A DNA stretch of 64,000 nucleotides from positions 86,602 to 150,601 of IMG/VR virus record IMGVR_UViG_3300009964_000001; one strand, given 5' to 3'. How positions within the stretch are numbered: the first letter of the stretch is position 1; each line of letters opens with the position of its first letter. This stretch comes from a virus. The translations under genes and the position numbers were made by a program. Below are positions 1,983 to 22,546 of the stretch, piece by piece. Below the pieces are notes generated by a model, which saw only the letters and a program-made list of their open reading frames with translations, was not told the origin of the DNA and did no database searches.

Positions 1983-2011
1983 TAATCATAATCACAAGCA
2001 TAAACGAAAAG

Positions 2012-3064: not shown

Positions 3065-3075
3065 TAGAAGAATCG

Positions 3076-3954
3076 ATGATGAAAGTAAAGTTCATAGCAA
3101 GTGTTGATAAGAACTTCGCTGTTGGAAACGACGGCAAACTTCTATTCAGAATCCAAGAAGATATGAAACTGTTCCGTGAGATGACGATGGGGAATATTGT
3201 CATCATGGGCAGAAAGACATACGAAGAGATCGGAAAGCCACTTGAAGGAAGACTGAACATTGTCCTATCCCGAGATGACATTTCTATTGGAGGTGTTCAT
3301 GTGTTCAAGTCAATGGAAATGCTCAAAGCTTTCTGTGAATCTTCCACAAATCGACAAAAGGATGTGTTTGTGATTGGTGGTGCGGAAATGTGGAATCTCT
3401 TCAGAAGATATGTTTCACAAATCCACCTCACGAAAGTTCCAGATGATTGTCCCGAATACGACACCGTCTTCCCTTATGATCTTCTTAATGCTTTCACACT
3501 CGTTCATCGAAATCAGATCGGCTTCTATGAAAAGAACTATCAACCGATTGTTCACGAAGTTTATGATCGTCTGGGAGATGTGGTGGTGATGAATCGCAAG
3601 ACCGAAGAACTCTTGGTGGCCAGATTTGTTGATGTCTTGGAACACGTAGGTGGTAGTGGTGACGATATAAAAACTTATCGAGAAAATGACATGCTACTAA
3701 TGACGAACGACAGAATTGCTGTAAAGACTGATCTTCGTGTTTATGAACTTCCTCTTGGAACTCTTGTTAGTGTGAACGTCGTGCCGTCATTGTTCATGGA
3801 TAATGGACTGATGATTGCGGGGTGGGATATCGTCGACGACGATTTCATCGTCTACTTGACATTGACTGGGAAGAAGCCTATTTCTCTGAAACGTGGTGAT
3901 ATCATAGCAGATGTCAACTTCTATTCTCGTCATCCTCTGATGTACGCCCCTTAG
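3076..3954 (+). CDS. frd: Dihydrofolate reductase with C-terminal dUTPase-like extension (paralog 3 of 3)
   Basis: Canonical DHFR blocks: IASVDKNFAVGNDGKLLF, IVIMGRKTYEEIGKPLEGRLNIVLSR, VFVIGGAEMW, LTKVPDDCPEYDTVFP; then about 125 aa with TDLRVYELPLGTLV...AGWDIVDDDF...ISLKRGDIIADV (dUTPase-like). Confidence 0.85.
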   Translation: MMKVKFIASVDKNFAVGNDGKLLFRIQEDMKLFREMTMGNIVIMGRKTYEEIGKPLEGRLNIVLSRDDISIGGVHVFKSMEMLKAFCESSTNRQKDVFVIGGAEMWNLFRRYVSQIHLTKVPDDCPEYDTVFPYDLLNAFTLVHRNQIGFYEKNYQPIVHEVYDRLGDVVVMNRKTEELLVARFVDVLEHVGGSGDDIKTYRENDMLLMTNDRIAVKTDLRVYELPLGTLVSVNVVPSLFMDNGLMIAGWDIVDDDFIVYLTLTGKKPISLKRGDIIADVNFYSRHPLMYAP

Positions 3955-3967
3955 AAAATCAAGCATT

Positions 3968-4183
3968 ATGGATAAAAAGTACAGCGGTTATATCGTGATG
4001 AGTGATGGCTTGTTATCACCAAACGATGAGATCTCGTACAATGGTGACGTTTTCACGTATCTTGGGAAAACACTGAGTAAATCAAGCGGTGAACTTTGTG
4101 GTGTTTTCACAAATGGTAAAACAGAATGTTTTATCCCAGTCAGATTCATAAGAAGTATGAAGGACAAGAAGCTCGTGTACTAA
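3968..4183 (+). CDS. Hypothetical small protein
   Basis: ORF only. Confidence 0.3.
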   Translation: MDKKYSGYIVMSDGLLSPNDEISYNGDVFTYLGKTLSKSSGELCGVFTNGKTECFIPVRFIRSMKDKKLVY

Positions 4184-4374
4184 GAGAAATACTCTCCTTG
4201 GCTCTCCTTGGCATTTCCCTTGATTTCTGAACTATTCAAAGATATGAAAGCCTTCGAAAGTGGTTTTGAGATCAAGGGAAATACGTCTCTTGAAATCGTC
4301 TTTGTCTATTGAATCATAATCAATCCTCATATGATAGGAACTGTGGACATTAACAAAAAGCAAGAAGAATAGCA

Positions 4375-5100
4375 ATGGACATTATCAAAAATCTCGGTTA
4401 TAACCAACACGAGATTCTCGACAACATTCAGAAGTTGTACCTCGAAGGAAAGGGGATCGAATGTGACATCACTTATTCCAAAGGCGCATTCTACGGAAAG
4501 TTCAAAGTAAAAGACGCAGATGGTGAAGCACGTGATATCGTCATTGAGCAACCTCGACTGAAGTTCGATGTTTTCCCACTTTCCGAAGATGTCACAAAAA
4601 TAGAACCACTGACGGCACTTCCTCTCGATGATCTTTCGATCGAATCGATGATGATCGATCTGCCGTTCATCGTCAGACCAACAAAGCCAGATACGTCAGT
4701 CACTGATGAAACTGGGTCGAAGATGTTCAACAGATTTCAAGGTTTCCACACTCCAGACGACATGTATGAAACGTACTGGTTCTGGATCAATGAAGCCTAT
4801 CGTGTCTTGAAGGTCGGTGGAACGCTTTTGTTCAAGACACAGAACACGATTTATGGCGGTATCAACCACAACACTGAGTTTTTCTCATTCATGTGTGCCG
4901 AGAAAGCTGGATTTGTCACAGAAGACACCTTCGTTCTTGGCGCAAAGTCTCGCATGATCTCACCATTTATGACCAAGCAGTTACATGCTCGAAAGTTCAC
5001 CTCGACCTTCTTCGTTTTCAAGAAGCATAAATCTCAGAAGCACAAGAAGTTCAACTATTGGTCATTAATCCCAAAGCTTGAAGAATCTTTCAATAATTAA
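4375..5100 (+). CDS. Hypothetical protein (weak methyltransferase-like segment WFWINEAYRVLKVGGTLLF; no DPPY/FxGxG motifs)
   Basis: 241-aa ORF in operon context between frd and nrd; function not assignable. Confidence 0.5.
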   Translation: MDIIKNLGYNQHEILDNIQKLYLEGKGIECDITYSKGAFYGKFKVKDADGEARDIVIEQPRLKFDVFPLSEDVTKIEPLTALPLDDLSIESMMIDLPFIVRPTKPDTSVTDETGSKMFNRFQGFHTPDDMYETYWFWINEAYRVLKVGGTLLFKTQNTIYGGINHNTEFFSFMCAEKAGFVTEDTFVLGAKSRMISPFMTKQLHARKFTSTFFVFKKHKSQKHKKFNYWSLIPKLEESFNN

Positions 5101-5118
5101 TACAAGAAACTAAACCGT

Positions 5119-7161
5119 ATGTCAAAATCAGAAATCGCTAACGAGTTCTTAAGTGATCTCGTCGTGCATTCGAAGTATGCGAACATTGTCCCAGAGGAAC
5201 ATAGAAAGCAGACGTGGGAAGAATGTGTAGCAGAACTGGAGAAGATGTTCATCAATGATTATCCTCATCTTGAAGGAGAAATCCGTGAGAACATGAAGAT
5301 GGTGTACGCCAAGAAGGTGTTCCCATCAATGAGATCGATCCAATTCGGTGGTCTTCCTATCTCATATAACCCAACACGAATCTACAACTGCTCTGCACTT
5401 CTTCTCAACAATACAAAGTGCTTCTCGGAGATCATGCACATTCTCTTGAGTGGGACTGGAATCGGTGTTTCTATCCAAAAGCGACATATCAACAACCTAC
5501 CAGTGGTCAAGAAGCCATCAAAGAAGAAGCGTTTCCTCATCTCGGATTCTATCGAAGGTTGGGCAGATGCCGTTCGCATGCTCTGCTACTCTTATCTTCG
5601 TGGGAATCCTTATCCAGAGTTCGACTATCGTGACATTCGCCCAAAAGGATCGATCATCAAGAAGCTGAACTGCTATGCACCAGGTCATGAAAGACTCAAG
5701 AAGTCAATCGAACAGATCGACAAGGTCTTCAAGACTGCCGTAGGTCGAAAGCTCACACCTCTTGAATGTCTTGACATCTCTTGCTTCATTGGTGATGCCG
5801 TGGTAAGTGGTGGTGTGAGAATGGCTGCAATGATCATGTTCTTCGACAAGGATGATGAAGCAATTATGACTGCAAAGTCAAACGTTCCACTTCGAAGTGC
5901 AACAGTAGAATCGGAAGATGACAAGAACTGGTACATCAGAGTAGAACCGAAGAACATCGACGACTTCTATGGTGATGAATCTCGAATGCTAACTGTTCGC
6001 AAGAAGTTCGGTGACTTCGACAACTCTTGGGACTACGACAACATCTGCAAGAATCTCTCGGCAAGTTGGTACTACGTGCATCCTCAGCGAGCAATGAGTA
6101 ACAACTCTGCCGTGCTTCATCGTGATACCACCACACGTGAGGAACTCGAGAAGCTGATGAGAATTGCAGATGCTAACAAGTCTGGAGAACCAGGTCTCTT
6201 CTGGACGAACGATTATGACATGATCTCGAACCCATGTGGTGAGATTGCACTCAACGATTGTCAGTTCTGTAATCTTTCGACGATTGTGGCATATGACATA
6301 ACAACTCAAGAAGAGTTCAACCATCGTGCAAGAGTGGCATCATTCCTTGGAACTCTCCAAGCAGGTTACACCGACTTCCACTATCTCCGCCCAAAGTGGA
6401 AGGAACAGACCGAAAATGAAGCACTTCTCGGTGTATCTTTGACAGGTATTGCATCGGGAACTATTCTTTCTCTCAATGAAACTGAAGCTGCATTGTGTGC
6501 AGTGGAAGAAAACAAGAGAGTGGCAAAACTGATCGGTGTAAATGAAGCACAAAGAGTCACCACGATTAAGCCCGAAGGGACATCGACGATCGTTGCTGGT
6601 GTGTTCGGAAGTGGGATTCATTCTGCTCATGCGGAATATTACGTTCGTAACATCCGAATTCTGAAGTCTGATCCAGTTTACACTTATCTGAAGATCAACG
6701 CTCCAGATTTTCTCGATGATGAATATTCCGATAAGGATAAAGCCGTGTTCTCTGTTCCAATGCGTGCAAACCACGATTGTATCTTCAGAACGGAATCGAC
6801 GTTCGACCTCCTCGAGAGAATTAAGAGATTCAACGAGAATTGGATAGCACCAGGTCACATCTCTGGAGCAAACAAGCACAATGTCTCGTCGACTGTCTAT
6901 GTCAAAGATGGTGAGATCGATAAGGTCATCGAATGGATGTGGGACAATCGCAATTCCTACTCTGGTCTCACGATTCTCCCCTTCGATGGTGGTACTTACA
7001 AGCAAGCACCATTCCAAGATATCACCAAGGAAGAATATGAAGAGATGCTCGAGAGATTCCCAACTGATCTCGACCTTTCTAAGGTTTATATCGAAGACAT
7101 CAAGACTACTCAGTTTGAATACGCTTGCGCAGGGGGTGCTTGTGAAGTGAAGTCCGTTTAG
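5119..7161 (+). CDS. Ribonucleotide reductase catalytic subunit, NPCGE-type (class II NrdJ-like)
   Basis: 680 aa; active-site NPCGEIAL...CNLST; C-terminal Cys pair ACAGGACEV; typical RNR length. Confidence 0.8.
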   Translation: MSKSEIANEFLSDLVVHSKYANIVPEEHRKQTWEECVAELEKMFINDYPHLEGEIRENMKMVYAKKVFPSMRSIQFGGLPISYNPTRIYNCSALLLNNTKCFSEIMHILLSGTGIGVSIQKRHINNLPVVKKPSKKKRFLISDSIEGWADAVRMLCYSYLRGNPYPEFDYRDIRPKGSIIKKLNCYAPGHERLKKSIEQIDKVFKTAVGRKLTPLECLDISCFIGDAVVSGGVRMAAMIMFFDKDDEAIMTAKSNVPLRSATVESEDDKNWYIRVEPKNIDDFYGDESRMLTVRKKFGDFDNSWDYDNICKNLSASWYYVHPQRAMSNNSAVLHRDTTTREELEKLMRIADANKSGEPGLFWTNDYDMISNPCGEIALNDCQFCNLSTIVAYDITTQEEFNHRARVASFLGTLQAGYTDFHYLRPKWKEQTENEALLGVSLTGIASGTILSLNETEAALCAVEENKRVAKLIGVNEAQRVTTIKPEGTSTIVAGVFGSGIHSAHAEYYVRNIRILKSDPVYTYLKINAPDFLDDEYSDKDKAVFSVPMRANHDCIFRTESTFDLLERIKRFNENWIAPGHISGANKHNVSSTVYVKDGEIDKVIEWMWDNRNSYSGLTILPFDGGTYKQAPFQDITKEEYEEMLERFPTDLDLSKVYIEDIKTTQFEYACAGGACEVKSV

Positions 7162-7181
7162 TATTGATTATTGATTGTGTC

Positions 7182-7221
7182 GTCGACCTCCGTGGGATAA
7201 AAACCACGGAGGTCGATTTTT
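7182..7221 (+). terminator. Rho-independent terminator after RNR
   Basis: gtcgacctccgtgg-gataaaaa-ccacggaggtcga followed by TTTTT. Confidence 0.65.
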
Positions 7222-7243
7222 ATAAGATAATAAAAAACCCAGA

Positions 7244-7729
7244 ATGATTATCACATTTCTCATTATAATCGTCTCTTTCATCCTCTTGTTCTATAAGACG
7301 ATCAAGCTTTATAAGTACACTTCAGATTGTTTCACAAACATCGTCGAAAATGAAACAATCCAACTAAGGTACAAGATGAAAATCGATGGACAAGACGTGA
7401 AGAATGTAAGAAAGACAATGTTCAACGTGCTTTATGTCTTCGTGGTTATACCAGATGAAGTGAGAAAAAGTGATCACATAAGTTACATCATCAGTCATTT
7501 ACAACTGATCGAAGAATCCCTACAAGTTCAGAATCTTTATGGTCTTGTAAGTTCTTCACGTGAGCAGTTTGTAAGTGTAGAGAACGATAAAGAAAGAACG
7601 ATTTATCTCGTAAAGTTCAAGCCGATCATTTATGGTCTTGATCTCTGGAGAATCCTCGTCTTCTTGATGATGATAATCGTCGCAATTTATAATAAAGAAA
7701 TAGAAGAATTTGTATGGCTAATGTTTTAA
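7244..7729 (+). CDS. Hypothetical membrane protein (N- and C-terminal hydrophobic segments)
   Basis: ORF, hydrophobic stretches. Confidence 0.4.
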   Translation: MIITFLIIIVSFILLFYKTIKLYKYTSDCFTNIVENETIQLRYKMKIDGQDVKNVRKTMFNVLYVFVVIPDEVRKSDHISYIISHLQLIEESLQVQNLYGLVSSSREQFVSVENDKERTIYLVKFKPIIYGLDLWRILVFLMMIIVAIYNKEIEEFVWLMF

Positions 7730-8802
7730 GTGGGAACGATCCTTCCTACGTCCTTAATCCAAAGATAAGAACAAGAGAGCGGTCTATCGTTTTCTCGAAT
7801 AACTCTTTCATGGACAGTTTCGGGAGAACTTTCCTTGACATGACCAAGTTCTCTGTAAAATGTGAAAGATCGTCATCGACAATAATCACGATTGATCCAT
7901 ATGAAGAGGTGACAATCCCTGCGTTCAAGAACGTGATTTTCACGTGTTTCGATGGATCTGTTGCACATATGAACGATGCACAGATTCGAAGCAAGCAGAC
8001 TTTACATTTCAATGTGAATGTGGAAGTTGAAAATCCCAAAGATGCACTGTCGTGGAATTCCAAAACTACTCATCTGAACATAAGTTTTGTGTTCCCACCT
8101 TTAATGAGTGAAGGTATCGACGGAATAGCTAACCTCCAAACACAGCATATAAGCATTCAAAGATACCTCTCGAAATCTGGGAAATATGTCGGATATGTTG
8201 AAGATATCACTTTCGAGCATCTTCATACGCAGGTAAAGTTCAACATCCACTACGAATATGACGAGATTTTGAATGAACACGATCTGAAGATAAGCGACTT
8301 CAAAGTTGCTGGTAAGTTCAGTGGAGGTGGAGAAATCGACACCGAGTACAACGTCACGAAAAAGTCACGAGTTTTCATGCTCTCACCGAACATGGACTAT
8401 CAGTTAGATGGTGTGGAATCCGTTAGATTCCTTTACAACAGGGAAACATGGGAGAAGCTATGTGACAATGGAGCTATTCTGAGAAAGTACACCGCCCTTG
8501 GAAGTGAAGAAGACGTTCGATTAGATCACGACATGTTCCAATCGAAGTTCGATGTCGCTGGATTCCGTGGGATTTCTATCGTTGTCGAAAACAACGAGGA
8601 AATCGGAGAAATCCAAGAGGTTTCTGTGGAAAAGATCTACAAGAAGTATGATGAATCGTTTGATTGTTCAATCACGTGTGGTGCTCTCCGAGAACATGAC
8701 GTTTATCACAGCTTCGGTTTTGTAAGACCTCAAGGAAACAGCGTGTCTTTCAGAAATATAACAAGAAAAAATATCGATTTACAAGTTTTATCTTATGAAT
8801 AA
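7714..8802 (+). CDS. Hypothetical protein
   Basis: 362-aa ORF, no recognised motif. Confidence 0.5.
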   Translation: MANVLSGNDPSYVLNPKIRTRERSIVFSNNSFMDSFGRTFLDMTKFSVKCERSSSTIITIDPYEEVTIPAFKNVIFTCFDGSVAHMNDAQIRSKQTLHFNVNVEVENPKDALSWNSKTTHLNISFVFPPLMSEGIDGIANLQTQHISIQRYLSKSGKYVGYVEDITFEHLHTQVKFNIHYEYDEILNEHDLKISDFKVAGKFSGGGEIDTEYNVTKKSRVFMLSPNMDYQLDGVESVRFLYNRETWEKLCDNGAILRKYTALGSEEDVRLDHDMFQSKFDVAGFRGISIVVENNEEIGEIQEVSVEKIYKKYDESFDCSITCGALREHDVYHSFGFVRPQGNSVSFRNITRKNIDLQVLSYE

Positions 8803-9082
8803 ACTCAACCTTTTATCAATCCTTAAGGTGTTGGTAAAGCAGGAACTGGGAAATGTCACAGTCAATGGCAATCTCCTCAGTTATAACAGTGGCGTGGTGT
8901 CCAATAATGTCACAGGTCGTACATACAACGTCGTGGCAAACTACAATTCACTGAATCCAAATGTCGTATCTTGTATGTTCTCCACTTCACAGGGTACGAG
9001 CCATATGGTCTTCGTAAGAGGTCAAGAACGATTTGATCTTCTTCTGAAGCTCATGGAAGTATGTCAAGACAAGCAAATGTAA
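8795..9082 (+). CDS. Hypothetical protein
   Basis: ORF only. Confidence 0.3.
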   Translation: MNKLNLLSILKVLVKQELGNVTVNGNLLSYNSGVVSNNVTGRTYNVVANYNSLNPNVVSCMFSTSQGTSHMVFVRGQERFDLLLKLMEVCQDKQM

Positions 9083-9103
9083 CTTTTTAATTTCAATCCA
9101 AAT

Positions 9104-9367
9104 ATGACTAAGAAAGAATTCATCACAGCTCTCGCAGAGCAGACTGGTGCAACTAAGACGCAGGTAGAAGCCATCATCGGTGCTTATCACAAGACTATCA
9201 TCGAAAGTCTTAAGAAGGATGAGCCAGTGACCTTCGTTGGCTTCGGTACGTACTCATCCAGAGTTCGCCCAGAGCGTGAAGCCTTCAAGCCTGGTACTAA
9301 GGAAAAGATGACAGTACCTGCAAAGAAGGTCGGTAAGTTCAAGATGTCAAAGTCTGTAGAACTTTAG
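9104..9367 (+). CDS. hup: HU/IHF-family histone-like DNA-binding protein
   Basis: MTKKEFITALAEQTGATKTQVEAIIGAY...FGTYSSRVRPEREAFKPGT matches HU fold signature; 87 aa. Confidence 0.85.
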   Translation: MTKKEFITALAEQTGATKTQVEAIIGAYHKTIIESLKKDEPVTFVGFGTYSSRVRPEREAFKPGTKEKMTVPAKKVGKFKMSKSVEL

Positions 9368-9402
9368 TAGAAAAAGGAGATAAACGAATTCGCAATGAAC
9401 GG

Positions 9403-9440
9403 ATGGGCTGGTCTTTGGAAACATAGACCAGCCCATTTCG
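9403..9440 (+). terminator. Stem-loop after hup
   Basis: atgggctggtc...gaccagcccat. Confidence 0.5.
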
Positions 9441-9568
9441 TATAAAAATATCGACCAATCAGAAATATCGAAAATGACGACGGAATCGACACCGACGAAC
9501 ACATACGAATGCTTTCGATATAAAAATGGAAAGAACGAATTAATCAAATCAAACTTAATAAAGAACAA

Positions 9569-10990
9569 ATGAAAGCCAAGAAGCATCAAGTAGGCATGTT
9601 CGATCACATGTTCGAAAAGGGAAAGATCACGTTCTTGTTGGATGGTTATTCCGCAGGTTCATCTGGCAAAGGCAAGTGTGAATCTCTCATCGTAAAGAAC
9701 ACATCGTTCGGCACTGGGGATAAGCGTCTTGCAGTCTGTACCACGAACTCTGCAAATGCATCGCATTGGGTTTATGATGACGGCAAGAAGATGATGTTCG
9801 AAGTACTGCCTTCATCGGCTTATCTTCACGAAAAGCTCGAGTTCGTCGCTATCGGTCATGGTGCATCATTCTCCGTAGAAAGACTCTTCGAGGAAATCAA
9901 GATGAGTGGTCTTCCTCTCGATAAGCTCTTCATCCATCCCAAGGCAGGGATCATCACCAAGATCGATGAAGACTACGAAAAGGGTCTTTGTGATATCGAC
10001 GGCAACTATGGTTCATCCGATCACGATGGTACAATCGCAGGCGGATCTACTTGCTCTGGATCTGGTGCAGTTCGAGCAAAGAAGGTCGTAAGAAACAAGA
10101 CAGTGACTTATGCTTATCAAGTCCCAGAACTCAAGCAGTTCATCTGTGATGTCGAGAAGCGTCTTATGACGTTTATGCTTAACGGAGGATCAGTTCTTCT
10201 ACAGATTGGTCAAGGTTTCCCACTTTCGTATGGTCTCGGCTATAACAAGCAGAACTCAACAAGTCGAAACGTGACGATCAGTGCAGCTTTGGATGACATG
10301 AATCTTCCTCCATTTTTCGCAGGTGATGTTATCTTGAATGGTAGAACTTATCCGATCAAGATCAACAACAAGAAGTATCGTCTTCTCGGTGGGAAGCCAG
10401 TTGTCCGTCTTCACAAGAACTCGGAATCGACACTGAAGTATTATGCTCATAAGCATCTGTTCGACTTCATCGAAGGAGATGATCACGTTTCTATCGTCAC
10501 ACGTAAGGAATTCATTAACTTCTACGAAATGCGTGAGTTCCCCTACCTTGAATACGAGGTTATCGAATCGTTCAGTGGTACTGGCTATTCTCCAATCTGG
10601 AACGAAGAAAGTCACCAGCGAGAAATCACGTGGGAAGATGTCGAAAAGAACTATGGGAAGACGATTCCAGATGATGTAAAGTGCACGTCACTTACCAAGC
10701 TCCCTCGAAGAGTCTTTGAGTTTGATAAGAGCCTTCTGCACGACGGCATTCTCTACAATCTTTCTCCAAATGGCAAAACTCACATTGTCATCAACTTCGT
10801 CAACTGGGTAGATGGTGAAATGGACGGAGAACGTGAGAAGATCACGGAGAAGATAGAAGATTGGCTCTCCAAGAACATGTTCGCAGAAATCGACACTATC
10901 AACAAGCTGGTGGGTGATGAGAAGAAGGTAATACTTTCTGTACTCGGGACTGGTCGTGAATCCGACGACTTTGTCGCTGTAGAAGAGTAA
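9569..10990 (+). CDS. Adenylosuccinate synthetase (PurA)-family enzyme with variant P-loop; PurZ-like candidate
   Basis: Blocks align to PurA: LLDGYSAGSSGKGK (PurA GDEGKGK), NSANASHW (GGHNAGHT), GGSTCSGSGAVRAKKV (GTTGRGIGPAYEDKVAR), QIGQG (EGAQG); 473 aa. Confidence 0.8.
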   Translation: MKAKKHQVGMFDHMFEKGKITFLLDGYSAGSSGKGKCESLIVKNTSFGTGDKRLAVCTTNSANASHWVYDDGKKMMFEVLPSSAYLHEKLEFVAIGHGASFSVERLFEEIKMSGLPLDKLFIHPKAGIITKIDEDYEKGLCDIDGNYGSSDHDGTIAGGSTCSGSGAVRAKKVVRNKTVTYAYQVPELKQFICDVEKRLMTFMLNGGSVLLQIGQGFPLSYGLGYNKQNSTSRNVTISAALDDMNLPPFFAGDVILNGRTYPIKINNKKYRLLGGKPVVRLHKNSESTLKYYAHKHLFDFIEGDDHVSIVTRKEFINFYEMREFPYLEYEVIESFSGTGYSPIWNEESHQREITWEDVEKNYGKTIPDDVKCTSLTKLPRRVFEFDKSLLHDGILYNLSPNGKTHIVINFVNWVDGEMDGEREKITEKIEDWLSKNMFAEIDTINKLVGDEKKVILSVLGTGRESDDFVAVEE

Positions 10991-11017
10991 CTTCTTCTCC
11001 TTCAAGAACAATTAGAA

Positions 11018-11059
11018 AAATGAGGGTCATTGTGACAATAAGCACACAATGACCCTCAT
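11018..11059 (+). terminator. Stem-loop after PurA-like gene
   Basis: aatgagggtcattgtg...cacaatgaccctcatt. Confidence 0.55.
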
Positions 11060-11115
11060 TCTTGTTATAAGATTAATAAAAAACACAAGCCCACACCATT
11101 TCGAAAATCTTCATT

Positions 11116-11517
11116 ATGACAAAAGACGACTGCACAAGCATTAAGAAGATACTACGGATTTCTACGATAGTTTTCTTCGTTATCACAACGATCTACTTCA
11201 TTGTCGCAATTATGCGTATTGCGAACATAGGTGAAGAAAGCAAACCACACGAAATAATCGATTCGTTGAAATACACGAACTCTGTCTATGAACACGATGT
11301 TCGAAAGTTGAAAGCACAGATCGATTCACTTTCCATGCAAAACGAGATCTCTTCAAGAAAGATTGATTCACTTGAAAATGTCGTCGATGTGAAAACGTCT
11401 TCATTACGTAAAGCAGAGAGTGCAATGCGAGCAAAGAAGCTGAATTTCTCCAAAGACGTATTCGAAGTTGAACAAGAACTAAGACAAAACATAGCAGAAT
11501 ATGAAAAGAACAATTAG
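11116..11517 (+). CDS. Membrane-anchored coiled-coil protein (N-terminal TM helix)
   Basis: TM segment ISTIVFFVITTIYFIVAIM then heptad-rich region. Confidence 0.4.
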   Translation: MTKDDCTSIKKILRISTIVFFVITTIYFIVAIMRIANIGEESKPHEIIDSLKYTNSVYEHDVRKLKAQIDSLSMQNEISSRKIDSLENVVDVKTSSLRKAESAMRAKKLNFSKDVFEVEQELRQNIAEYEKNN

Positions 11518-11899
11518 CCTCTCGCTCTTGATACTTCTGTGTTGTACCACCAAAGCGTATTCTCAGAACATAGAAATCTCGAAGAAAGATGCTGTCATAA
11601 TCAACCACATGTTTGATCAACACAAGCAACTTCTGGAGATCTCCGCAATGAAGGATTCGATCATGCAGTCTTTGAGGGAAGTCGTGGACAACAATACACT
11701 CATCATCGAAAACCAACTTGAACAGCTCCGCAAATATGACGAGATGATGATGAAGAATGACACCATTATTTCCAATCATAAGAAGATGGCGGAGATCTAT
11801 GAAAAATCTCTGAAGAAGGAAAGACAGAAGTCAGCATTTTGGAAGTATGTCGGACTTCTTTCCTCTGCAGTGGCGATCACGTCATTTATCTTAAAGTAA
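11501..11899 (+). CDS. Secreted/lipoprotein-like coiled-coil protein with C-terminal TM
   Basis: Signal-like MKRTISLSLLILLCCTT, coiled coil, C-terminal hydrophobic tail. Confidence 0.4.
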   Translation: MKRTISLSLLILLCCTTKAYSQNIEISKKDAVIINHMFDQHKQLLEISAMKDSIMQSLREVVDNNTLIIENQLEQLRKYDEMMMKNDTIISNHKKMAEIYEKSLKKERQKSAFWKYVGLLSSAVAITSFILK

Positions 11900-11938
11900 C
11901 CTCTCCAGAGTGCAGGAAGGTATCTCCCTTGCACTCTG

Positions 11939-13276
11939 ATGTATACGAGAATATTTTCACCCCAATCAAATCAAGAAATGTCAAGGAACGTATCTCCTCT
12001 CGATCACAGGTATGCTGATGTCATACAGAACATGTCGAAAGTCTTTAATTCCGAAAGGTACTACAAGACGATGTGGAATGTAGAAGTCGAATACTTTCTT
12101 TACTTCTTAGAAAAGTTTGTACACCGAGAAGTGGACGGAGACCTCATAAGAAACAGTTGTAAGTTCGACAGTCTTGTCTACAACGAGATAATCTCCGAGG
12201 AAAGTGTAACACGGCACGATGTCAAGGCAGTTATCAATGTCTTACAGAACAAACTGGTCTTCCTTGAGAAATCTCAGAAAATCGAGAAAGTGTCGGTTTA
12301 TGTCCATTTCGGACTGACTTCCCAAGACATTGTTTCGTTATCGATGTCTATTCTCATGTCGGAAGCCATTGAAGTCATTGATCATGTCGTCAACTACACG
12401 GAAGCCATTCTCACAAATCTTCATCGAGAGACGAAGGATGTTTGGTCTCTATCAAGGACTCATGGACAATCTGCAGTTCCCCATCTTTTGAAAGACGACG
12501 TTTATAAGTGGAGGTACGATGTCTTGAAGTTTAGACGGCATATTGTCTATGATGTAGTCAAGTTCTCTGGGGCAGTTGGTAACAACTTCGCAATTTCGAG
12601 ACTTTTCAACATGGACGCTCGGAGAGTTGCGGAACTCATGGATTCGTTTGTGAAGAAGTTCGGAAGATTCACTGTTAGTGGAGAAGAATCGACACAAACC
12701 GACAGATGGGAATCGTTCTGTCAGAGATTTTCTGATTGGAATCTGGCCATTTCAAGGATCATCAGTGATGTGCAACAGATCTGGCAAATGTGCTCGGATG
12801 GTTATTTCAAACTGAAAGTGGACGATGGCTATTGCGGATCTTCGGCAATGCCACACAAGATCAACCCTATCAAGTTTGAAAACGCAGAAGGATGCTTCTG
12901 TAGATGTCAGAAAGACTTCGAGTTTTATATTAGTAAGTTATCGAAGTCAAGAATGCATCGTGATCTGTCGGATTCAGTGGTTATAAGAATGATCCCCGAG
13001 ACGTTGTCTTATCTTTATCTTGGATTCTCGTCGTTTGTAAGTGGTCTGAAAGCACTTGAGGTGAATACCGAGAAGATAAAAGACGACCTCGAAGAGAACT
13101 ATCAAGTGTTCTCCGAAATCGTACAGCTCTATCTGAAGTTGAAGGGAGATGAAGACGCATACGAAGAATCAAAGCGTGTGTTTAGAGGAAGCTCGATGAC
13201 ACTCTACGACTTCAAGAAAGCTATCAAAACTCTCGGTATTGAGTACGATGAAATCAAGAAGTTTATAGAACTTTAG
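11939..13276 (+). CDS. purB: Adenylosuccinate lyase
   Basis: Fumarate-lyase signature GSSAMPHKINPIKFENAEG (E. coli PurB GSSTMPHKVNPIDFENSEG); 445 aa. Confidence 0.85.
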   Translation: MYTRIFSPQSNQEMSRNVSPLDHRYADVIQNMSKVFNSERYYKTMWNVEVEYFLYFLEKFVHREVDGDLIRNSCKFDSLVYNEIISEESVTRHDVKAVINVLQNKLVFLEKSQKIEKVSVYVHFGLTSQDIVSLSMSILMSEAIEVIDHVVNYTEAILTNLHRETKDVWSLSRTHGQSAVPHLLKDDVYKWRYDVLKFRRHIVYDVVKFSGAVGNNFAISRLFNMDARRVAELMDSFVKKFGRFTVSGEESTQTDRWESFCQRFSDWNLAISRIISDVQQIWQMCSDGYFKLKVDDGYCGSSAMPHKINPIKFENAEGCFCRCQKDFEFYISKLSKSRMHRDLSDSVVIRMIPETLSYLYLGFSSFVSGLKALEVNTEKIKDDLEENYQVFSEIVQLYLKLKGDEDAYEESKRVFRGSSMTLYDFKKAIKTLGIEYDEIKKFIEL

Positions 13277-15186: not shown

Positions 15187-15645
15187 ATGGATGAAAAAGT
15201 AAAAGAATACGAGCAATTTGTCGTTTCTTGCTTCAACGAGAATCCTACAAATAACAAGGTTCTCGACTTCATTCACATGACAATGGCACTTATGTCAGAA
15301 TCTGGTGAATTTGCTGATATAGTCAAGAAGGCGGTGTTCCATTCTAAGGAGATCTCGAAGGTTGATCTTGTAGACGAACTCGGTGATGTTCTGTTCTATT
15401 TCATGAACATTTGTCATTTCCTTGGTGTCACGATTGATGATGTCATGGAAGCAAACCTCATCAAGATCCGTGAAAGATATCCCGAAGGTCGTGGTAAGAA
15501 CTATAACTTCGGTACACGTAATAAGGCAGAAGAAAAGAAGAGAATAGAACAATTCTTGATGAAGATAAAGCAAGACGTGTCAATCGATATCAATATCAGC
15601 CAAATCAGCGGACATCAACATCAGTCTCAACACATAGGAAAGTAG
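15187..15645 (+). CDS. mazG: MazG-like nucleoside triphosphate pyrophosphohydrolase
   Basis: ESGEFADIVKK...ELGDVLFYFMNICHFLGVTIDDVMEANLIKIRERY matches MazG/NTP-PPase helix motifs (E..E...E..D). Confidence 0.8.
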   Translation: MDEKVKEYEQFVVSCFNENPTNNKVLDFIHMTMALMSESGEFADIVKKAVFHSKEISKVDLVDELGDVLFYFMNICHFLGVTIDDVMEANLIKIRERYPEGRGKNYNFGTRNKAEEKKRIEQFLMKIKQDVSIDINISQISGHQHQSQHIGK

Positions 15646-15647
15646 CC

Positions 15648-16475
15648 ATGATTCTTGTAACAATTCGGAACATCAACATAGAAGCATTCATCAGCTTCTT
15701 CAACGATATAGACATCAAGTCTAAGCAGGTGATTGATATCTACAAAACAGAAGATGGAAAGCATGAGATCGTCTCTCGTGGTCACACAATCACACGTGAC
15801 TTCGTGAAAGTCGTAGAATCAGACTTCGACGTAATGTGTCAAGAGATTGTCTCAAAGTCGGAATACAGCCACATCAAGATTCCGTTCATTGAAATCAAGA
15901 AGTTTGTGGAACTTCTAAAGATCTACACCGATGATGAGCAAGTGAACATCAATCTTTCGTGTGATGAAAAGGGAGAATCGCTTGTTGTGGTGAAACTTGA
16001 AGTGAAATCCAAGAGAAAGTCTTCGAGAATGCCAATGGCGGACATTTCTCTTGTTCCATATCTTCAGAAGGACATCTGGGAAAATCTGCTCCAAAGCACA
16101 GAAAGACTGTCATTCTTCGGTCTGTCTCAGAATGATGTCGTGGACGTGAAGAAGCTGATGAAGTATGCTTCGGAATCACAGGCATCAGCAAAGGTCAAGG
16201 AGATCTCAAAGTTTAGAGTGAAGTTCGAAGATGGACAGACCACGATTATGTCATATGAAGATCGATGGAACATTGACATCCCAACAGATGGTTCATTCAC
16301 TGGGGATTTCGTCTTCCCTGCTATTCTCTTCAAGCATCTCTCTTCAACGAACGTCTATAATTGCTCGTTCGTGAAAGCAATGGGTCGTGATACCAAGTTC
16401 CTAATCGTCTCGAATGAAACATTGAGAACCACGTGTGTTGTTATCGCAGAAAAATTCGATATCAACAAAAAATAA
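15648..16475 (+). CDS. Hypothetical protein immediately upstream of terminase (small-terminase position)
   Basis: Position only; no Walker A; 275 aa. Confidence 0.4.
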   Translation: MILVTIRNINIEAFISFFNDIDIKSKQVIDIYKTEDGKHEIVSRGHTITRDFVKVVESDFDVMCQEIVSKSEYSHIKIPFIEIKKFVELLKIYTDDEQVNINLSCDEKGESLVVVKLEVKSKRKSSRMPMADISLVPYLQKDIWENLLQSTERLSFFGLSQNDVVDVKKLMKYASESQASAKVKEISKFRVKFEDGQTTIMSYEDRWNIDIPTDGSFTGDFVFPAILFKHLSSTNVYNCSFVKAMGRDTKFLIVSNETLRTTCVVIAEKFDINKK

Positions 16476-16495
16476 GATAGATAACAATTTATAAG

Positions 16496-17638
16496 ATGAA
16501 TGAGGGTGTGCAAACTTTTGTGCATCCTCATTCATCTGTATTTTTCAAAGACTTCATGCGATACATTCTCGACAAACTGATAATAATCTTGACGATAATA
16601 CGATACAAACTTTGGAGATTTCCAATAAACGATGACGGAATAATTGATTCAGTCGTGCTTGATAACCACGAAACACTCACTATAAACGGTTGGAAGCCAC
16701 TTTCTTCAGTACACCTAAAAGCTGTTCATGACATTGTGGAAGTTGGTGCAGGTGAGTACAAGGTAAGTGGTTCTGTCAATCACCTCGTCTATTCTTCCAA
16801 GAACACGCTTGAAAGCTATCAGCCCACGAAAGTGAAGGATCTCTCTTTAGGTGATATCTTGATGACGATGGATGGTGCTCGCAAAGTCTCTTCACTCAAG
16901 AAGTCTCATCAGCAGATCGTGTTTGATTTATCTGTCGTGGATGAGACTTTGTCATATTTCTCGGACGGAATACTTTCCCACAACTCTGTAATGAGTGGTA
17001 TTTTTATTGCGTGGTACATCTTGACTAACTACGACAAGACCGTTCTTTGTACTAGTGCTAATGCAGACAAGGTCGATGAGCTTGTTGACAAGATTAACTC
17101 GATCTTCATGCATCTTCCGTTCTATATGAAGCTCGGGATTGAAGTTGATAATGTATCCAAGAAGAAATGGGACAACGGTTGCAAACTGATAGGTGAAACA
17201 GCGACTGAGAACTCTGGTGCAGGTGAAACCGCAGACCTCCTTTATGCTGACGAGTTTGCACTTATCGAACCTAACATAATCAACGAGTTCTTCCGTGTAG
17301 TTTATCCTACACTTTCGGCAAGTAAGAAATCGAAGATGATAATTACCAGCACGGCAAGAGGTATGAACAAGTTCTATCAGCTTTATCAAGATGCGCTTGA
17401 TGGTAAGAACAATTTCAACCCAATAAGAATCGACTGGTGGGAAGTAGAAGGCAGAGATGAACAATGGAGACTTGATCAGATAGCAGACCTCGGTTCTGAA
17501 GCAGACTTTAACCAAGAATACGGTAACTCGTTCATGAGCGGATCAACACTTCTTCTCTCCACTGCTGTCCTCAAGAAACTCGGGAAGTATCAGAAGAAGT
17601 TCGTAAATGGTGTGTTCTCGAATGACGGTTCTTTGTGA
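16496..17638 (+). CDS. Terminase large subunit, ATPase-domain fragment (gp17-like) preceded by intein-like Hint module
   Basis: After ...GILSHN|S the sequence aligns to T4 gp17 from residue 168 (SVMSGIFIAWYILTNYDK ~ TVVAIFLAHFVCFNKDK), Walker B LLYADEFA, C-motif IITSTARG; segment upstream of the P-loop is absent. Confidence 0.75.
   Translation: MNEGVQTFVHPHSSVFFKDFMRYILDKLIIILTIIRYKLWRFPINDDGIIDSVVLDNHETLTINGWKPLSSVHLKAVHDIVEVGAGEYKVSGSVNHLVYSSKNTLESYQPTKVKDLSLGDILMTMDGARKVSSLKKSHQQIVFDLSVVDETLSYFSDGILSHNSVMSGIFIAWYILTNYDKTVLCTSANADKVDELVDKINSIFMHLPFYMKLGIEVDNVSKKKWDNGCKLIGETATENSGAGETADLLYADEFALIEPNIINEFFRVVYPTLSASKKSKMIITSTARGMNKFYQLYQDALDGKNNFNPIRIDWWEVEGRDEQWRLDQIADLGSEADFNQEYGNSFMSGSTLLLSTAVLKKLGKYQKKFVNGVFSNDGSL
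16634..16984 (+). mobile_element. Mini-intein (Hint domain, about 117 aa) at terminase P-loop site
   Basis: Block A-like IIDSVVL, block B SGSVNHLVYS, block F VFDLSVVDETLSYF, block G GILSHN followed by Ser; no canonical Cys/Ser at position 1. Confidence 0.55.
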
Positions 17639-17679
17639 TGAAAATTGCACAGGTTTTTAATTTATAAAAATTAAAAGAT

Positions 17680-18507
17680 TTGCGGAAAATGGTAGAAGAT
17701 GTTCTCCTTGAATACGACCAGTACTTTTTCATACACCCCAACTTTGAACTTCAGTGGTTTAAAGATGAGCGCAATGCGTTCGTTCTATCAATAGACATTG
17801 CAGAAGGTAAAGGAGGTGACTACACGATCATCAACTTCTTCCAAGTCCTCCCAATGACACCTTCGGAAATTGAAGGTGTGAAAATCTTCAACGACGAAGA
17901 ATCATTCTTCAAGCTGGTGCAGGTTGCCATGTTTAGATCGAACATGGTAGAAACACCAGAATGTGCAAATTGGCTGTATCATTTCATAAACGGTTACATG
18001 ATACAGGACAACTTGAAGATCGTTATCGAGAACAACTTTGAAGGGAACTACTTCCGAAACACACTAATGAACATTTATGGAGAGCAGAATGAACTCGATG
18101 AAGATGTCATATTCTGCAAGTTTCTCTATAATGCTCGAGATGATAATGCTCGAACTTTCAGAGTCGGGATTTATCAAACAGAACCCCGAAAGCAACATTC
18201 TTGTAAGATATTCTCCGATCAACTGAAGAATAACCAGCTTGTTCTTACTGAGTTTATGACAATCCAAGAAGCTATGACCTTTGCACGATCAGAAAAATCA
18301 TCTTCATATCGTGCAAGCTCTGGCCATGACGACTGTGTTATGACGTGTGTCAACGTTGTAAACATTCGAGATATTGAAGAATGGTCAGAACTCGTGGAAA
18401 TTGTCAGTGAAAATTGCACAAACGAGTTTTGGAAACTGGTCGACAAGAAGCTCGGGAAACAAGCCGAAAGAAATGACGAACTCGACATATCAGACTATTA
18501 CGATTAA
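17680..18507 (+). CDS. Terminase large subunit nuclease domain (separate ORF)
   Basis: FVLSIDIAEGKGGDYTIINFF (gp17 [21 protein letters not shown]) and SSGHDDCVMTCV (gp17 GYHDDLVMSLV) RNaseH-like nuclease motifs. Confidence 0.75.
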   Translation: MRKMVEDVLLEYDQYFFIHPNFELQWFKDERNAFVLSIDIAEGKGGDYTIINFFQVLPMTPSEIEGVKIFNDEESFFKLVQVAMFRSNMVETPECANWLYHFINGYMIQDNLKIVIENNFEGNYFRNTLMNIYGEQNELDEDVIFCKFLYNARDDNARTFRVGIYQTEPRKQHSCKIFSDQLKNNQLVLTEFMTIQEAMTFARSEKSSSYRASSGHDDCVMTCVNVVNIRDIEEWSELVEIVSENCTNEFWKLVDKKLGKQAERNDELDISDYYD

Positions 18508-19193: not shown

Positions 19194-20690
19194 ATGATCA
19201 ATTGTAAACAGATCAGAGACAAGATGTCGGTGTCTTATTTCGACGAAAACGGAAACATTGCGATATCTGACATAACAATAGACGATCGTGAAAAGTACGT
19301 ATGGACAAAGACAACCGAAGATGACAAGTTTCGAGACAAGACTTACGTATCTCAAGACGGATTCCCTGTGAAAAAAGAACGTAAGTCCTATCTCGACAAA
19401 TATCGCAAGATCGAGTTCTTGCTGTCTCTACCAGAACGTTTACAAGCGAAGATTTTCTCAAACAATCAGCCACGTAAGTTCTTCTGGGATATTGAAACAG
19501 AAGTTTTTGATGACTTCCCCGATGCTGGGAATCCTGTTGGGAGAATCTTCACGCATCAGTATTGTGATGAGTTCGGCAATGGTACTGTCATGGGCATCAA
19601 GCCACTTTCACAGACACAAATCGACTCTATCGAACAGAAGATCAACGACTATCTCTCACAGATCACCGATAAGACGCTTCATCAGAGATATAAGTTCCGT
19701 TACATTTACTACCCCGATGAGTTCACGATGAACAAAGACTTCGTCGAGAATCATGCAACAAAGATGCCGTGTATTTTCGGATGGAACGTGCTGAAGTTCG
19801 ATACAAGATACCTCGTCAACAGGTGTAAAAAGACGAACATTGATCCTACAATTCTCTCACCAAAGAGAATGCTTTACTCGACGATTGCGAAAGATAAGTT
19901 CGACCATTCATCGAAAATTGAAATCGAACTTCCTCTTCATCGACCAATCATCGACTACATGCAAATCTTCGAATTCTTTGATAGATCGATTAAACAGAAG
20001 TCATCAATGTCGCTCGATTTCATCGCATCAGAAATCCTTGGTGTCAAGAAGATCCATCATTCCGAAACTCTGATGGAACTCTATGAGAAGGACTATGAAC
20101 GTTACGTGCTTTATGGTATCATCGATACGTTCCTCGTGGCATTGATCGACAAGAAGTGTAGAACATTTGAATCAATGAGCGTTCTTGCAAATCTCCTACG
20201 TGTCGAAGTTGCACAGTCTATGTTCGTTAGTGTCGGGATCGAAACACTCTTGTGTGACTACTATTACAAGCATTACAACAAGGTGTTTGTAAAGGACTAT
20301 GACAAGCAGATTCCCGAAGGTGAAACTTATAGCGCAGGATTCGTTCTACAACCAGGTATTGGTGTTTATGATGGTATCGTCATCTATGACTACGAATCAT
20401 TGTTCCCTTCAATCATGCAGATGTTGAACGTCGGTGAAGATGTTTACCTCGGTCATACCGATGATCAAGGGAAAACCTACGTGGACAAACTCGGAGAAGA
20501 ACACGAACTTGACGAGACGATGTGCTATTCATCCAGTGGTGCAGTTTACTCGAAAAACAGAGATTCCGCAATTCGAACGATGATTTCGAACATGTTCAAT
20601 AAACGAGTAGAAGCAAAACACAAGGAAGCAGAAATCAAAGCAGATATTAATCACTTAAAGCAGATATTAAAAGATAACTTCGGACATTAA
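19194..20690 (+). CDS. Family-B DNA polymerase, N-terminal part only (3'-5' exonuclease domain + motif A)
   Basis: Exo I FWDIETE, Exo II GWNVLKFDTRYL, Exo III YVLYGIIDT, motif A DYESLFPSIM; ORF stops about 90 aa after motif A, motifs B/C absent. Confidence 0.8.
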   Translation: MINCKQIRDKMSVSYFDENGNIAISDITIDDREKYVWTKTTEDDKFRDKTYVSQDGFPVKKERKSYLDKYRKIEFLLSLPERLQAKIFSNNQPRKFFWDIETEVFDDFPDAGNPVGRIFTHQYCDEFGNGTVMGIKPLSQTQIDSIEQKINDYLSQITDKTLHQRYKFRYIYYPDEFTMNKDFVENHATKMPCIFGWNVLKFDTRYLVNRCKKTNIDPTILSPKRMLYSTIAKDKFDHSSKIEIELPLHRPIIDYMQIFEFFDRSIKQKSSMSLDFIASEILGVKKIHHSETLMELYEKDYERYVLYGIIDTFLVALIDKKCRTFESMSVLANLLRVEVAQSMFVSVGIETLLCDYYYKHYNKVFVKDYDKQIPEGETYSAGFVLQPGIGVYDGIVIYDYESLFPSIMQMLNVGEDVYLGHTDDQGKTYVDKLGEEHELDETMCYSSSGAVYSKNRDSAIRTMISNMFNKRVEAKHKEAEIKADINHLKQILKDNFGH

Positions 20691-20693: not shown

Positions 20694-20951
20694 ATGGAAA
20701 TAAAACTGTTAGGAAAGAAGATACTCATAAAGCTCAATGAGGTCGAAAAGCAGGTCGATGGCTTCGAACTGGTACAACACAACGATGTAGACCAAACCGC
20801 AGGTGTTGTCTCGAATGTTGGGATAGGTGTTACAGAAGTCAAAGTCGGTGACAAAGTGATCGTCAACAAGTTCTCTGGTATTGAGGTTCTTATCGAAGGT
20901 GATAAGTTCAAGGTAGTAGAGGAACACGAAATATTAATCATTGTAAGATAG
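20694..20951 (+). CDS. groES: Co-chaperonin GroES (Cpn10)
   Basis: KILIKLNEVEKQ...VKVGDKVIVNKFSGIEV...EHEILIIV aligns along full GroES. Confidence 0.8.
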   Translation: MEIKLLGKKILIKLNEVEKQVDGFELVQHNDVDQTAGVVSNVGIGVTEVKVGDKVIVNKFSGIEVLIEGDKFKVVEEHEILIIVR

Positions 20952-20956: not shown

Positions 20957-22546
20957 ATGAACGCTGTAGACATTAAAAGCGGATCAGAAGCCAGAGAACT
21001 GATCCTTATTGGTGCAAAGAAGATCCATGACGCTGTAGGATCAACACTGGGACCTGGTGGTCGAAATGTCATCATCAAGCACAACACGTACGATGTACCA
21101 CAGGTCACTAAAGATGGTGTGACTGTAGCAAGAAAGATGAAGCTACAGAACTATTGGCACAACATTGGCTGTCAGCTCGTAAAGCAGGCATCAATGCGAA
21201 CAGCAGTTGATGCAGGTGATGGAACAACTTCCTCTGTCGTCATGGCGTACACGATGATGAAGCTGATCGATGAACTTCTTGAGGAAAATCCTGATATCGA
21301 TGTTCACCGACTTCGTCATGAGATGGAGAAGATGAAAGATGTCCTCATTGAACGACTTCGGGAAATCTCCACACCAATCGTTGATATTCAGCAGGTGTTC
21401 GATATTGCAAAGATCTCTACGAACAACGATGAGAAACTTGCAGGGTTACTTTCCGAGATTTATGGGAAGATTGGTAAAGATGGGATAATCGTTCTCGAAC
21501 AATCACAACTTTCGAATATCACCTATTCGATCGAATCTGGATTCCGATTTGACGGAGGATGGCAATCTCACTATTTCGTAAAGGACAAGTCAAAGATGTC
21601 GTTCGAATCTGACGATTGTGCAATCTTCATCACAAATCACAAGATCCAAGACGGCAAGACAATGCTGAATGCGCTTTCAAGGATCTACGGCACAGGTGTC
21701 CGTGATCTACTGATCATTGCGGAAAATATCGAAGGTGAAGCGTTATCGACTTTGATCGCCAATAATCAGAGTGGAAAGATGAACATTTGTCTTGTCAATC
21801 CTCCGTATTATGGACAGAAGCGTGAAGAATACCTCACTGACCTCTCCATTTCGCTTGGTATGAAGCCACTTATGGTGGGAGATCAGTCCGTGTCACCTCT
21901 CTCGTTTACAGAAGAGTACTTCTCTTGCGGTCGAAGCGTCTTTGTGGATAAAAGCACCACGACGATCAGAAATGACAAGGAAAGTGTATCGTCTGCAGTC
22001 GAAGAGCATATTTCGAATCTGAAGTCTCTTATGGATTCTGAAGATGAAGACAAGGAATGGATCGAAAAGAGAATAGCGACCTTAAGATCATCAGTTGCCG
22101 TCATAAAAGTTGGTGGTAATTCTGAATCTGAGGTTTATGAACACAAGGACAGACTTGAGGATGCGATTTGTGCTATAAGATCGGCATACAAGGACGGCAT
22201 AGTTGCAGGTTGTGGCATTACGTACATACGACTAATCTCTGCGCTTGATCCTTCTCTTGACACGTTCCATATCTTGAAATCTGGACTTGAATCCGTGTTC
22301 AAGAAGATAATGGACAACTCGTGCATATCAGAAGAAGAAAGATCATCGATTCTCTACTTTGTTGCCGAAGATGAAGGATACGGTTATGATGCCAAGAAGC
22401 GTGAGAAGTCGTACAATTCGATCAGAGATGGTATCATTGACTCGGCACGTGTTATAAAAAACTGTATCGAGAATTCGATATCTGTCGCTATCATGTTCAT
22501 GATCTCTGACAACATAGTCATGGAAATCGATGAATCGATAATCTAA
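20957..22546 (+). CDS. groEL: Chaperonin GroEL (Cpn60)-like
   Basis: AVGSTLGPGGRNVII, DAGDGTTSSVVMA (GroEL AGDGTTTATVLA), 529 aa. Confidence 0.85.
   Translation: MNAVDIKSGSEARELILIGAKKIHDAVGSTLGPGGRNVIIKHNTYDVPQVTKDGVTVARKMKLQNYWHNIGCQLVKQASMRTAVDAGDGTTSSVVMAYTMMKLIDELLEENPDIDVHRLRHEMEKMKDVLIERLREISTPIVDIQQVFDIAKISTNNDEKLAGLLSEIYGKIGKDGIIVLEQSQLSNITYSIESGFRFDGGWQSHYFVKDKSKMSFESDDCAIFITNHKIQDGKTMLNALSRIYGTGVRDLLIIAENIEGEALSTLIANNQSGKMNICLVNPPYYGQKREEYLTDLSISLGMKPLMVGDQSVSPLSFTEEYFSCGRSVFVDKSTTTIRNDKESVSSAVEEHISNLKSLMDSEDEDKEWIEKRIATLRSSVAVIKVGGNSESEVYEHKDRLEDAICAIRSAYKDGIVAGCGITYIRLISALDPSLDTFHILKSGLESVFKKIMDNSCISEEERSSILYFVAEDEGYGYDAKKREKSYNSIRDGIIDSARVIKNCIENSISVAIMFMISDNIVMEIDESII

Follow-up and report, generated by a model that had tools for sequence, protein, structure and literature searches.

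We analysed a 64,000-nt stretch of viral DNA (the window: positions 86,602 to 150,601 of IMG/VR record IMGVR_UViG_3300009964_000001) in which the genes for the large terminase (TerL) raise a question: how could a packaging ATPase be assembled if it is encoded without its P-loop and apart from its nuclease? We consider it likely that the large terminase of this T4-like myovirus, with a genome of ~150 kb, is encoded by three genes, the halves being joined by a split intein. This answer is carried by observations on the identity of the second and third pieces, which both lie in the window, on the site of insertion, the site at which the intein is split, the conservation of the splicing residues, purifying selection and the partner genes of related phages. 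The features of the locus are as follows.

16494-16537, plus strand: terminator-like hairpin with a 20-bp stem and a T-run, overlapping a spurious ATG at 16496 (scan and strain alignment)
16556-16639, plus strand: hydrophobic, helix-like head of the intein C-fragment (IntC), ~28 aa, MRYILDKLIIILTIIRYKLWRFP... (family alignment and comparison with CatC)
16556-16984, plus strand: IntC, 143 aa, with block B SVNH, block F VFDLSV and block G GILSHN, lacking block A and the Cys at position 1 (Cys1)
16985-17638, plus strand, stop codon included: C-extein, the remainder of the TerL ATPase after the GK of Walker A, which extends from its initial SVMSGIFIAWY into the inter-domain linker and holds Walker B (LLYADE) and the C-motif (ITSTARG) (Pfam, PHROG and gp17 alignment)
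17639-17688, plus strand: non-coding spacer between ATPase and nuclease, with an AT-rich palindrome at 17654-17677 (non-triplet indels among strains)
17689-18507, plus strand: stand-alone gene for the TerL nuclease (RNase H-like), 272 aa, with LSIDIAEG...GDY and GHDDCVMT motifs

Insertion of the intein in Walker A

The TerL ATPase was matched at residues ~162-357 of open reading frame (ORF) 16496-17638 (Terminase_6N in Pfam, 7e-8; phrog_2, 5e-21), and the ORF aligned with T4 gp17 from residue 169 onward (PDB 3ezk, E 1e-17). This bears out the claim of a first-pass annotation that an intein C-terminal junction, GILSHN|S, is followed by gp17-like sequence at the Walker A site. The Ser after GILSHN (the +1 Ser, 16985-16987) stands at the position of T167 in the Walker A GKT of gp17, with the insertion site between K166 and T167 in T4 gp17 numbering. 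Homologs without an intein read SRQIGK|SITVAIFIVWY, or more generally SRQIGK|S(I/W)(T/V)..., and therefore confirm the insertion point, this being the same junction that splicing would make here from ...GK and SVMSGIFIAWY. Further on, LLYADE corresponds to MIYIDE of gp17 (Walker B and the catalytic Glu) and IITSTARG to IITTTPNG (C-motif).

The N-terminal part with the Q motif and Walker A, already reported as not encoded upstream, was found nowhere in the window by tblastn, regular expressions or profile hidden Markov models (HMMs). The P-loop itself (SRQxGKT/S) is absent from the ATPase ORF and from the whole 64-kb window in regular-expression and HMM scans, and would exist only after splicing.

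The intein C-fragment

An atypically split intein is represented by its C-fragment in the N-terminal 143 aa of gene 16556-17638. The stretch before SHN|S, ...FDLSVVDETLSYFSDGILSHN, aligns with the annotated intein in the TerL of Klebsiella phage Magnus and with solved inteins, and a profile of the IntC family matched the solved inteins VidaL (1e-16) and gp41-1 (1e-15). The same profile matched CatC (PDB 6dsl_B, E 1.7e-9), with CatC 6-111 covered by profile positions 30-144, therefore indicating the same break point. Pfam Intein_splicing matched 18 of the 19 family members.

The match to cis-inteins begins at about residue 22, both by tblastn against Magnus and by profile against the solved inteins, and therefore only block A is missing. 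The gene starts past the first ~20-25 intein residues, and block A with its Cys1 or Ser1 is not in the polypeptide. The Asp/Gly that had been assigned to intein position 1 reflects a mis-registration, as block A belongs to the other fragment. IntC alone is not a complete intein, which is the defining trait of a split-intein C-fragment.

Block B (SVNH) occupies residues 73-76, counted from the M at 16556, and aligns to the cadnH/seeH of solved inteins, while the C-terminal motifs follow in the order VFDLSV...YFSDGILSHN|S (blocks F, G and the +1 Ser). The block B His, the block F Asp and SHN|S were invariant in homolog sets of 13 and 19 sequences. Across the family, IntC ranges in size from 127 to 174 aa and keeps its hydrophobic head of ~28 aa, which is absent from the engineered CatC fragment.

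Two further ideas were tried and dropped. The tail of the intein N-fragment (IntN) and the head of IntC were compared as a possible duplicated segment, but cognate pairs did not outscore shuffles (183 against 175 ± 11, with 130 of 500 shuffles reaching the score), and homology between the two was not detected. An intron reading was abandoned, as the window holds no Rfam intron families.

Partner genes in related phages

Relatives encode the N-extein with IntN as a separate gene, and of the explanations first put forward for this locus we favour a trans-spliced or multi-piece terminase. Members of this N-fragment family (160-195 aa) read ...LRxYQ...SRQxGK followed by Cys1 (rarely Ser) and an IntN of 42-72 aa, with YQ...RQxGK invariant. 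N-fragments could be tied to C-fragment genomes of the sister clade (P0010, P0011 and P0014) on the same contig, and contigs of equal length connect additional N- and C-fragments. In the 462-kb uncultured phage LR756500.1 the arrangement comprises a first ORF of 191 aa ending ...AARQTGK-C-FFHNILITIKL..., a second of 366 aa between the halves with weak Vsr/DUF559-type matches, and a third of 628 aa containing IntC, ATPase and nuclease.

The distance between the halves varies widely. The N-fragment gene directly adjoins the C-fragment in L025, the halves are one ORF apart in many loci, and in L013 the N-fragment lies 2 kb upstream, with a clamp-loader gene and one other between. The order is reversed in L004, where the N-fragment lies 6.6 kb downstream of the C-fragment, and in IMGVR_UViG_3300031918_000005 the C-fragment (~129.2 kb, plus strand) and the N-fragment (~89 kb, minus strand) are ~40 kb apart.

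Two N-fragments, P0203 and P0233, carry Ser at intein position 1 (...RQCGK-SLVG... and ...RQIGK-SLSI...), resembling GOS-TerL, for which a Ser1 nucleophile has been reported. Directly after the fractured TerL of LR756500.1 (L002) there is a 270-aa TerL-ATPase-like paralog (7844-8656) with a degenerate Walker A, SRQMGIS, and this is followed by a 615-aa Vsr/REase-like ORF with DUF7487 repeats.

The separate nuclease gene

ORF 17680-18507 aligned with the nuclease domains of RB49 and T4 gp17, including LDxSEG..DY and HDD (phrog_24361), and the catalytic Asp motifs are kept in the gene 17689-18507. The nuclease is not fused to the C-terminus of the ATPase and forms a separate cistron, which is kept across the clade, and each nuclease ORF in the relatives examined has its own ATG. 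Judged against fused homologs such as P0012, the break sits in the inter-domain linker. The earlier description of an ATPase that ends in the linker, with the nuclease in another frame after a gap of 41 nt, holds, and so does the palindrome at 17654-17677.

In L013 an ORF of 424 aa lies exactly at the ATPase end and is homologous (E 4e-36) to a Vsr/REase-like ORF of LR756500.1. We infer that insertion of a homing endonuclease made the break between ATPase and nuclease and that the endonuclease was later lost in the lineage of the window.

The AT-rich palindrome (TTTTTAATTTATAAAAATTAAAA) is invariant in 5 strains, with indels in its flanks, and is present in a single copy in the window. It could be a promoter or operator.

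Start and coordinates of the terminase pieces

The ORFs 16496-17638 (380 aa) and 17680-18507 (275 aa) lie in separate frames. The start at 16496 given by the first-pass annotation proved to be an artefact, and the true start of the IntC and ATPase gene is the ATG at 16556. The 60 nt between the two starts form the hairpin at 16494-16537, whose 20-bp stem, followed by the T-run, is kept in 5 strains; its loop carries a 2-nt indel and there are more indels before ATG 16556. Because the hairpin-loop indels among strains are incompatible with coding, we place the start at 16556, and homologs all begin near the equivalent of M21 of ORF 16496-17638. The hairpin stands directly 5' of the middle TerL piece, which suggests that a transcription unit of its own begins with the TerL pieces.

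JGI contig Ga0248010_1052 (150,577 bp) has a sequence identical to that of the window, and in IMG/VR the phage is represented by circularly permuted contigs of ~145-151 kb. No match was found by blastn against GenBank phages.

Conservation and selection

The architecture of IntC and ATPase only was found in 12 clusters (at 90% identity), with lengths of 346-379 aa and identities of 47-98%. We compared the genes with those of three close strains to obtain the ratio of non-synonymous to synonymous substitution rates (dN/dS). IntC showed 6-12 non-synonymous against 34-49 synonymous changes, with dN/dS of 0.03-0.06, and this is comparable to the ratios for the ATPase (0.01-0.055) and the nuclease (0.008-0.04). 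The strain alignments also contain non-triplet indels in both spacers, that is, 5' of ATG 16556 and between ATPase and nuclease.

The gene order MazG, 271-275-aa ORF, middle TerL piece, nuclease, ~215-aa ORF, N-part of the family B DNA polymerase (PolB-N), GroES, GroEL and gp32 is shared by independent assemblies with identities of 74% and 55%. It had been proposed that ORF 15648-16475 is a mobile gene whose insertion split the terminase; we found no support for this, as the ORF is syntenic in relatives and has neither an endonuclease signature nor a family match. On these comparative sequence data the pieces are best regarded as functional genes, and error, frameshift and pseudogene are all rejected.

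Proposed assembly of the terminase

Under the three-gene explanation, piece 1 would be an ORF of ~160-195 aa outside the window that encodes the TerL N-terminus as far as ...SRQxGK, followed by Cys1 or Ser1 and an IntN of ~45-70 aa. Piece 2 is gene 16556-17638 (IntC and the remainder of the ATPase) and piece 3 is gene 17689-18507 (the nuclease); pieces 1 and 2 would be translated separately. The short IntN would dock on the large, incomplete IntC and so complete the Hint fold. Class-1 splicing chemistry, using Cys1 or Ser1, the +1 Ser and the terminal Asn, would then join ...SRQxGK to SVMSGIFIAWY... in trans, with the junction reading ...RQxGK-SVMSGIFIAWYILTNYDK. The P-loop would arise only on this ligation, and the product would be an ATPase domain of ~330 aa equivalent to gp17 residues 1-~390. 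The nuclease (272 aa) would be translated from its own ATG, would act in trans and would have to bind the ATPase non-covalently. The docking of IntN, the splicing chemistry, the ATPase product and the binding of the nuclease are proposed from knowledge of the family together with conservation.

The fullest form of this proposal is a terminase of three products in which the P-loop is made by trans-splicing of products encoded tens of kb apart and the nuclease is a free subunit. We advance it tentatively, as something that may be so but on which we would not insist. The distant halves would possibly belong to different transcription classes.

The missing partner and alternative explanations

Several results weigh against the three-gene explanation. 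The N-extein was not found in any frame of the 64-kb window (tblastn, a six-frame Walker A regular expression and three profile HMMs run with --max), and N-fragment HMMs were negative on the window and on its flanks (30 kb on the left, ~8-10 kb on the right). These scans cover ~102 kb of the ~145-151-kb genome; the first-pass annotation had proposed looking for the N-fragment in the rest of the genome, and within this ~102 kb it was not found. Word-indexed protein searches and pattern scans tied an N-fragment to none of the members of the window's own clade (P0001-P0009). A tested precedent for a TerL with its nuclease as a separate polypeptide was not found either, and a C-terminal nuclease has been described as universal in tailed-phage TerL (PMC7824862). 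The missing partner is the main weakness, since piece 1 is predicted rather than seen in this genome, and trans-splicing in the window's clade is likewise a prediction.

When IMG/VR was scanned for N-fragments with patterns and profiles, sister-clade loci were returned and never contigs of this phage. The 30 kb to the left of the window contain the C-half of PolB (PolB-C), a 1039-aa protein, portal, sheath and a 1278-aa protein. In two sister genomes the N-fragment follows PolB-C, but with this synteny anchor no N-fragment was found after PolB-C of this phage, and none was found in front of the sheath gene, the position expected from T4. In the literature searched we found no description of a natural TerL split between ATPase and nuclease, which does not prove that there is none.

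The best surviving alternative, which we nevertheless consider improbable, is that the locus is an orphan or decaying remnant with no partner left, packaging being done by an intact terminase elsewhere in the genome. The failure to find the N-fragment in ~102 kb, or for the window's clade, is what such a remnant would leave, and the second TerL-like ATPase ORF of LR756500.1 indicates that paralogs occur. However, dN/dS is 0.03-0.06 on IntC and at most 0.055 on both extein pieces, and the splicing residues and the catalytic residues of ATPase and nuclease are all kept across 47-98% identity. A second TerL ATPase, intein or nuclease was not matched in the ~102 kb scanned, and sister-clade genomes with the same type of C-fragment have their N-fragment on the same contig.

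It is less probable still, and in our view very unlikely, that the intein fragment works alone, either by C-terminal cleavage (Asn cyclisation) or as a docking domain, with the P-loop supplied non-covalently. This would account for a partner that was not identified in the scanned ~102 kb of this genome and for the conserved hydrophobic head of IntC, which is absent from the characterised CatC. Yet the +1 Ser and the block B His, which serve ligation and not cleavage, are invariant, and close relatives have canonical partners bearing Cys1. In ASCE ATPases, Walker A belongs to the first strand-loop-helix unit of the core, and we know of no precedent for a P-loop supplied non-covalently; the position of Walker A in the core makes such a supply unlikely.

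Recoding, by a programmed frameshift or a bypass like that of T4 gene 60, could in principle fuse ATPase and nuclease. The sense codons of the ATPase ORF end with TTG (17633), which recurs in frame at 17680, 47 nt on and after the UGA stop, and the 47-nt gap between the two TTG codons starts with a stop and holds the palindrome. The spacer itself speaks strongly against this explanation, which we regard as highly improbable although programmed frameshifting had been suggested at first. From stop to ATG it measures 50 nt here, 82 and 56 nt in relatives at 74% identity (L438 and L439) and 1 nt in a relative at 55% identity (L006, which reads TAA-T-ATG and has no gap at all), while in near-identical strains it differs by +1, +2, +3 and +4 nt and the landing TTG is lost. 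As the lengths vary by non-multiples of 3, the frame relation is not fixed, and both a frameshift and a gene-60-type bypass are therefore out. Moreover, no nuclease ORF was found within 10 kb of the ATPase piece in the sister clade.

The last alternative, a sequencing or assembly artefact in which indels broke a continuous TerL gene and its 5' part was deleted, has in its favour that the two ORFs lie in different frames only 41-50 nt apart, but it is barely conceivable and the earlier suggestion of assembly error is refuted, given that the layout is identical in independent JGI, ENA, Logan and IMG/VR assemblies and extends to homologs down to 47% identity, those at 74%, 55% and ~50% having different spacers, their own start codons and a syntenic upstream neighbour ORF.

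Other genes and repeats of the genome

The family B DNA polymerase is also split. Its N-part of 498 aa (window 19194-20690) ends before GroES and lacks DTDS, and its C-part of 400 aa (KxxxNSxYG and YADTDS; L248 4747-5949) is on the same strand, ~5 kb left of the window start and ~23 kb upstream of the N-part. The split is kept in relatives (PolB-N of 493-497 aa, then GroES), and the break shows no visible intein motifs. GroES (20694-20951) and GroEL (20957-22546; Pfam Cpn10 and Cpn60) follow right after the PolB N-piece, and this too is kept in relatives.

Upstream of the TerL pieces there is a densely packed nucleotide-metabolism block (window 218-13276) with thymidylate synthase, two DHFR-domain genes, an HU-like protein, adenylosuccinate synthetase and adenylosuccinate lyase, after which MazG (15187-15645) lies just upstream of the terminase. 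A UvsX-like recombinase of 589 aa (window 46867-48636) has a PHROG match spanning 428 residues against 325 profile positions, suggesting an insertion of ~100 aa; the TerL IntC profile had no match in it.

The minus strand carries six clustered tRNA genes at window 56731-62026, for Gln, His, Ser, Tyr, Met and Lys. A dispersed repeat of ~190 nt, with 82-92% identity between copies, occurs in gene-poor parts of the right end of the window (62179-62371 and, inverted, 63626-63767) and, upstream of PolB-C, in 1.4 kb where no genes were called (L248 3464-3655 and 4007-4103). The repeat is not a tRNA, and it had no Rfam match at the gathering threshold in the window.

Implications

If the three-gene explanation is correct, splicing would be a post-translational switch that licenses the packaging ATPase, and the motor would work without the covalent hinge between ATPase and nuclease that models of the T4 motor use for force transmission. 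The conserved stand-alone nuclease cistron is a natural experiment on whether the TerL ATPase and nuclease must share one chain. For intein biology, the rare atypically split TerL inteins used in protein labelling gain a natural family that is large, diverse and strongly conserved. The halves need not stay in a fractured-gene locus, as they can drift up to 40 kb apart and onto opposite strands, and both Cys1 and Ser1 variants occur. It should also be noted that TerL pieces of this kind are liable to be miscalled in annotation as truncated genes or pseudogenes.

Comparison with known systems

The closest known systems are the atypically split TerL inteins, for which Thiel (2014) and Bachmann and Mootz (2015) are reportedly the source studies. 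A split intein in a gp17-like terminase has been described by Dassa et al. (2009) as 'fractured at an unusual point', its long C part having every motif but N1 (PMC2677866), and AceL-TerL, GOS-TerL and Cat-TerL are given as biochemically active, atypically split inteins in a further paper (PMC11766414). The intein described here shares with these three a gp17-type TerL host, insertion at GK|T/S of Walker A, a terminal HN, and a break right after block A that leaves a C-fragment of more than 100 aa carrying all motifs except N1. The alignment of CatC to the window's IntC runs end to end, although sequence identity is low (profile E 1.7e-9). The differences lie in size and arrangement. The known C-fragments are 104-122 aa, whereas IntC here is ~143 aa with its extra hydrophobic head of ~28 aa, and the known IntN are 25-37 aa against 42-72 aa in the relatives of this phage, where a longer tail has a helix-like end; the characterised fragments contain neither this tail nor the head of IntC. 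Further differences from the three known inteins are the Ser at +1, the non-adjacent halves in the window's clade and the second cut in the C-extein, before the nuclease.

A fractured gene, in the order N-half, free-standing homing endonuclease and C-half (PMC2677866), is found in exactly this form in LR756500.1. The window has neither an N-half nor an endonuclease gene beside its C-half, and in sister genomes a distance of 2-40 kb separates the halves, whose order varies and which in one case lie on opposite strands. A cis counterpart exists in Ackermannviridae, where the TerL of phage Magnus (NC_049462.1) carries a mini-intein at the same site (...ARQSGK|C...SHN|T) that is homologous from after block A to block G. 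The Magnus intein differs in being undivided, Cys1 and block A included, and the TerL of Magnus is a single chain of 736 aa.

Other genes of T4-like phages also occur in pieces, including nrdA of Aeh1, split by mobE, gene 39/60 of T4 and the split gene 43 of Aeromonas phages. As in these cases, an essential enzyme is cut here at a domain boundary into separate polypeptides that would assemble non-covalently, and the ORF at the ATPase end in L013 is of the Vsr-like endonuclease type. The present case differs in that the cut protein is the large terminase, divided between motor and nuclease, and in that there is no endonuclease gene at the break. Taken as a whole, the intein is a new and divergent representative of a kind already known and validated by experiment, and the less ordinary features of the system are its dispersed halves, the head of IntC together with the tail of IntN, and the stand-alone nuclease cistron.

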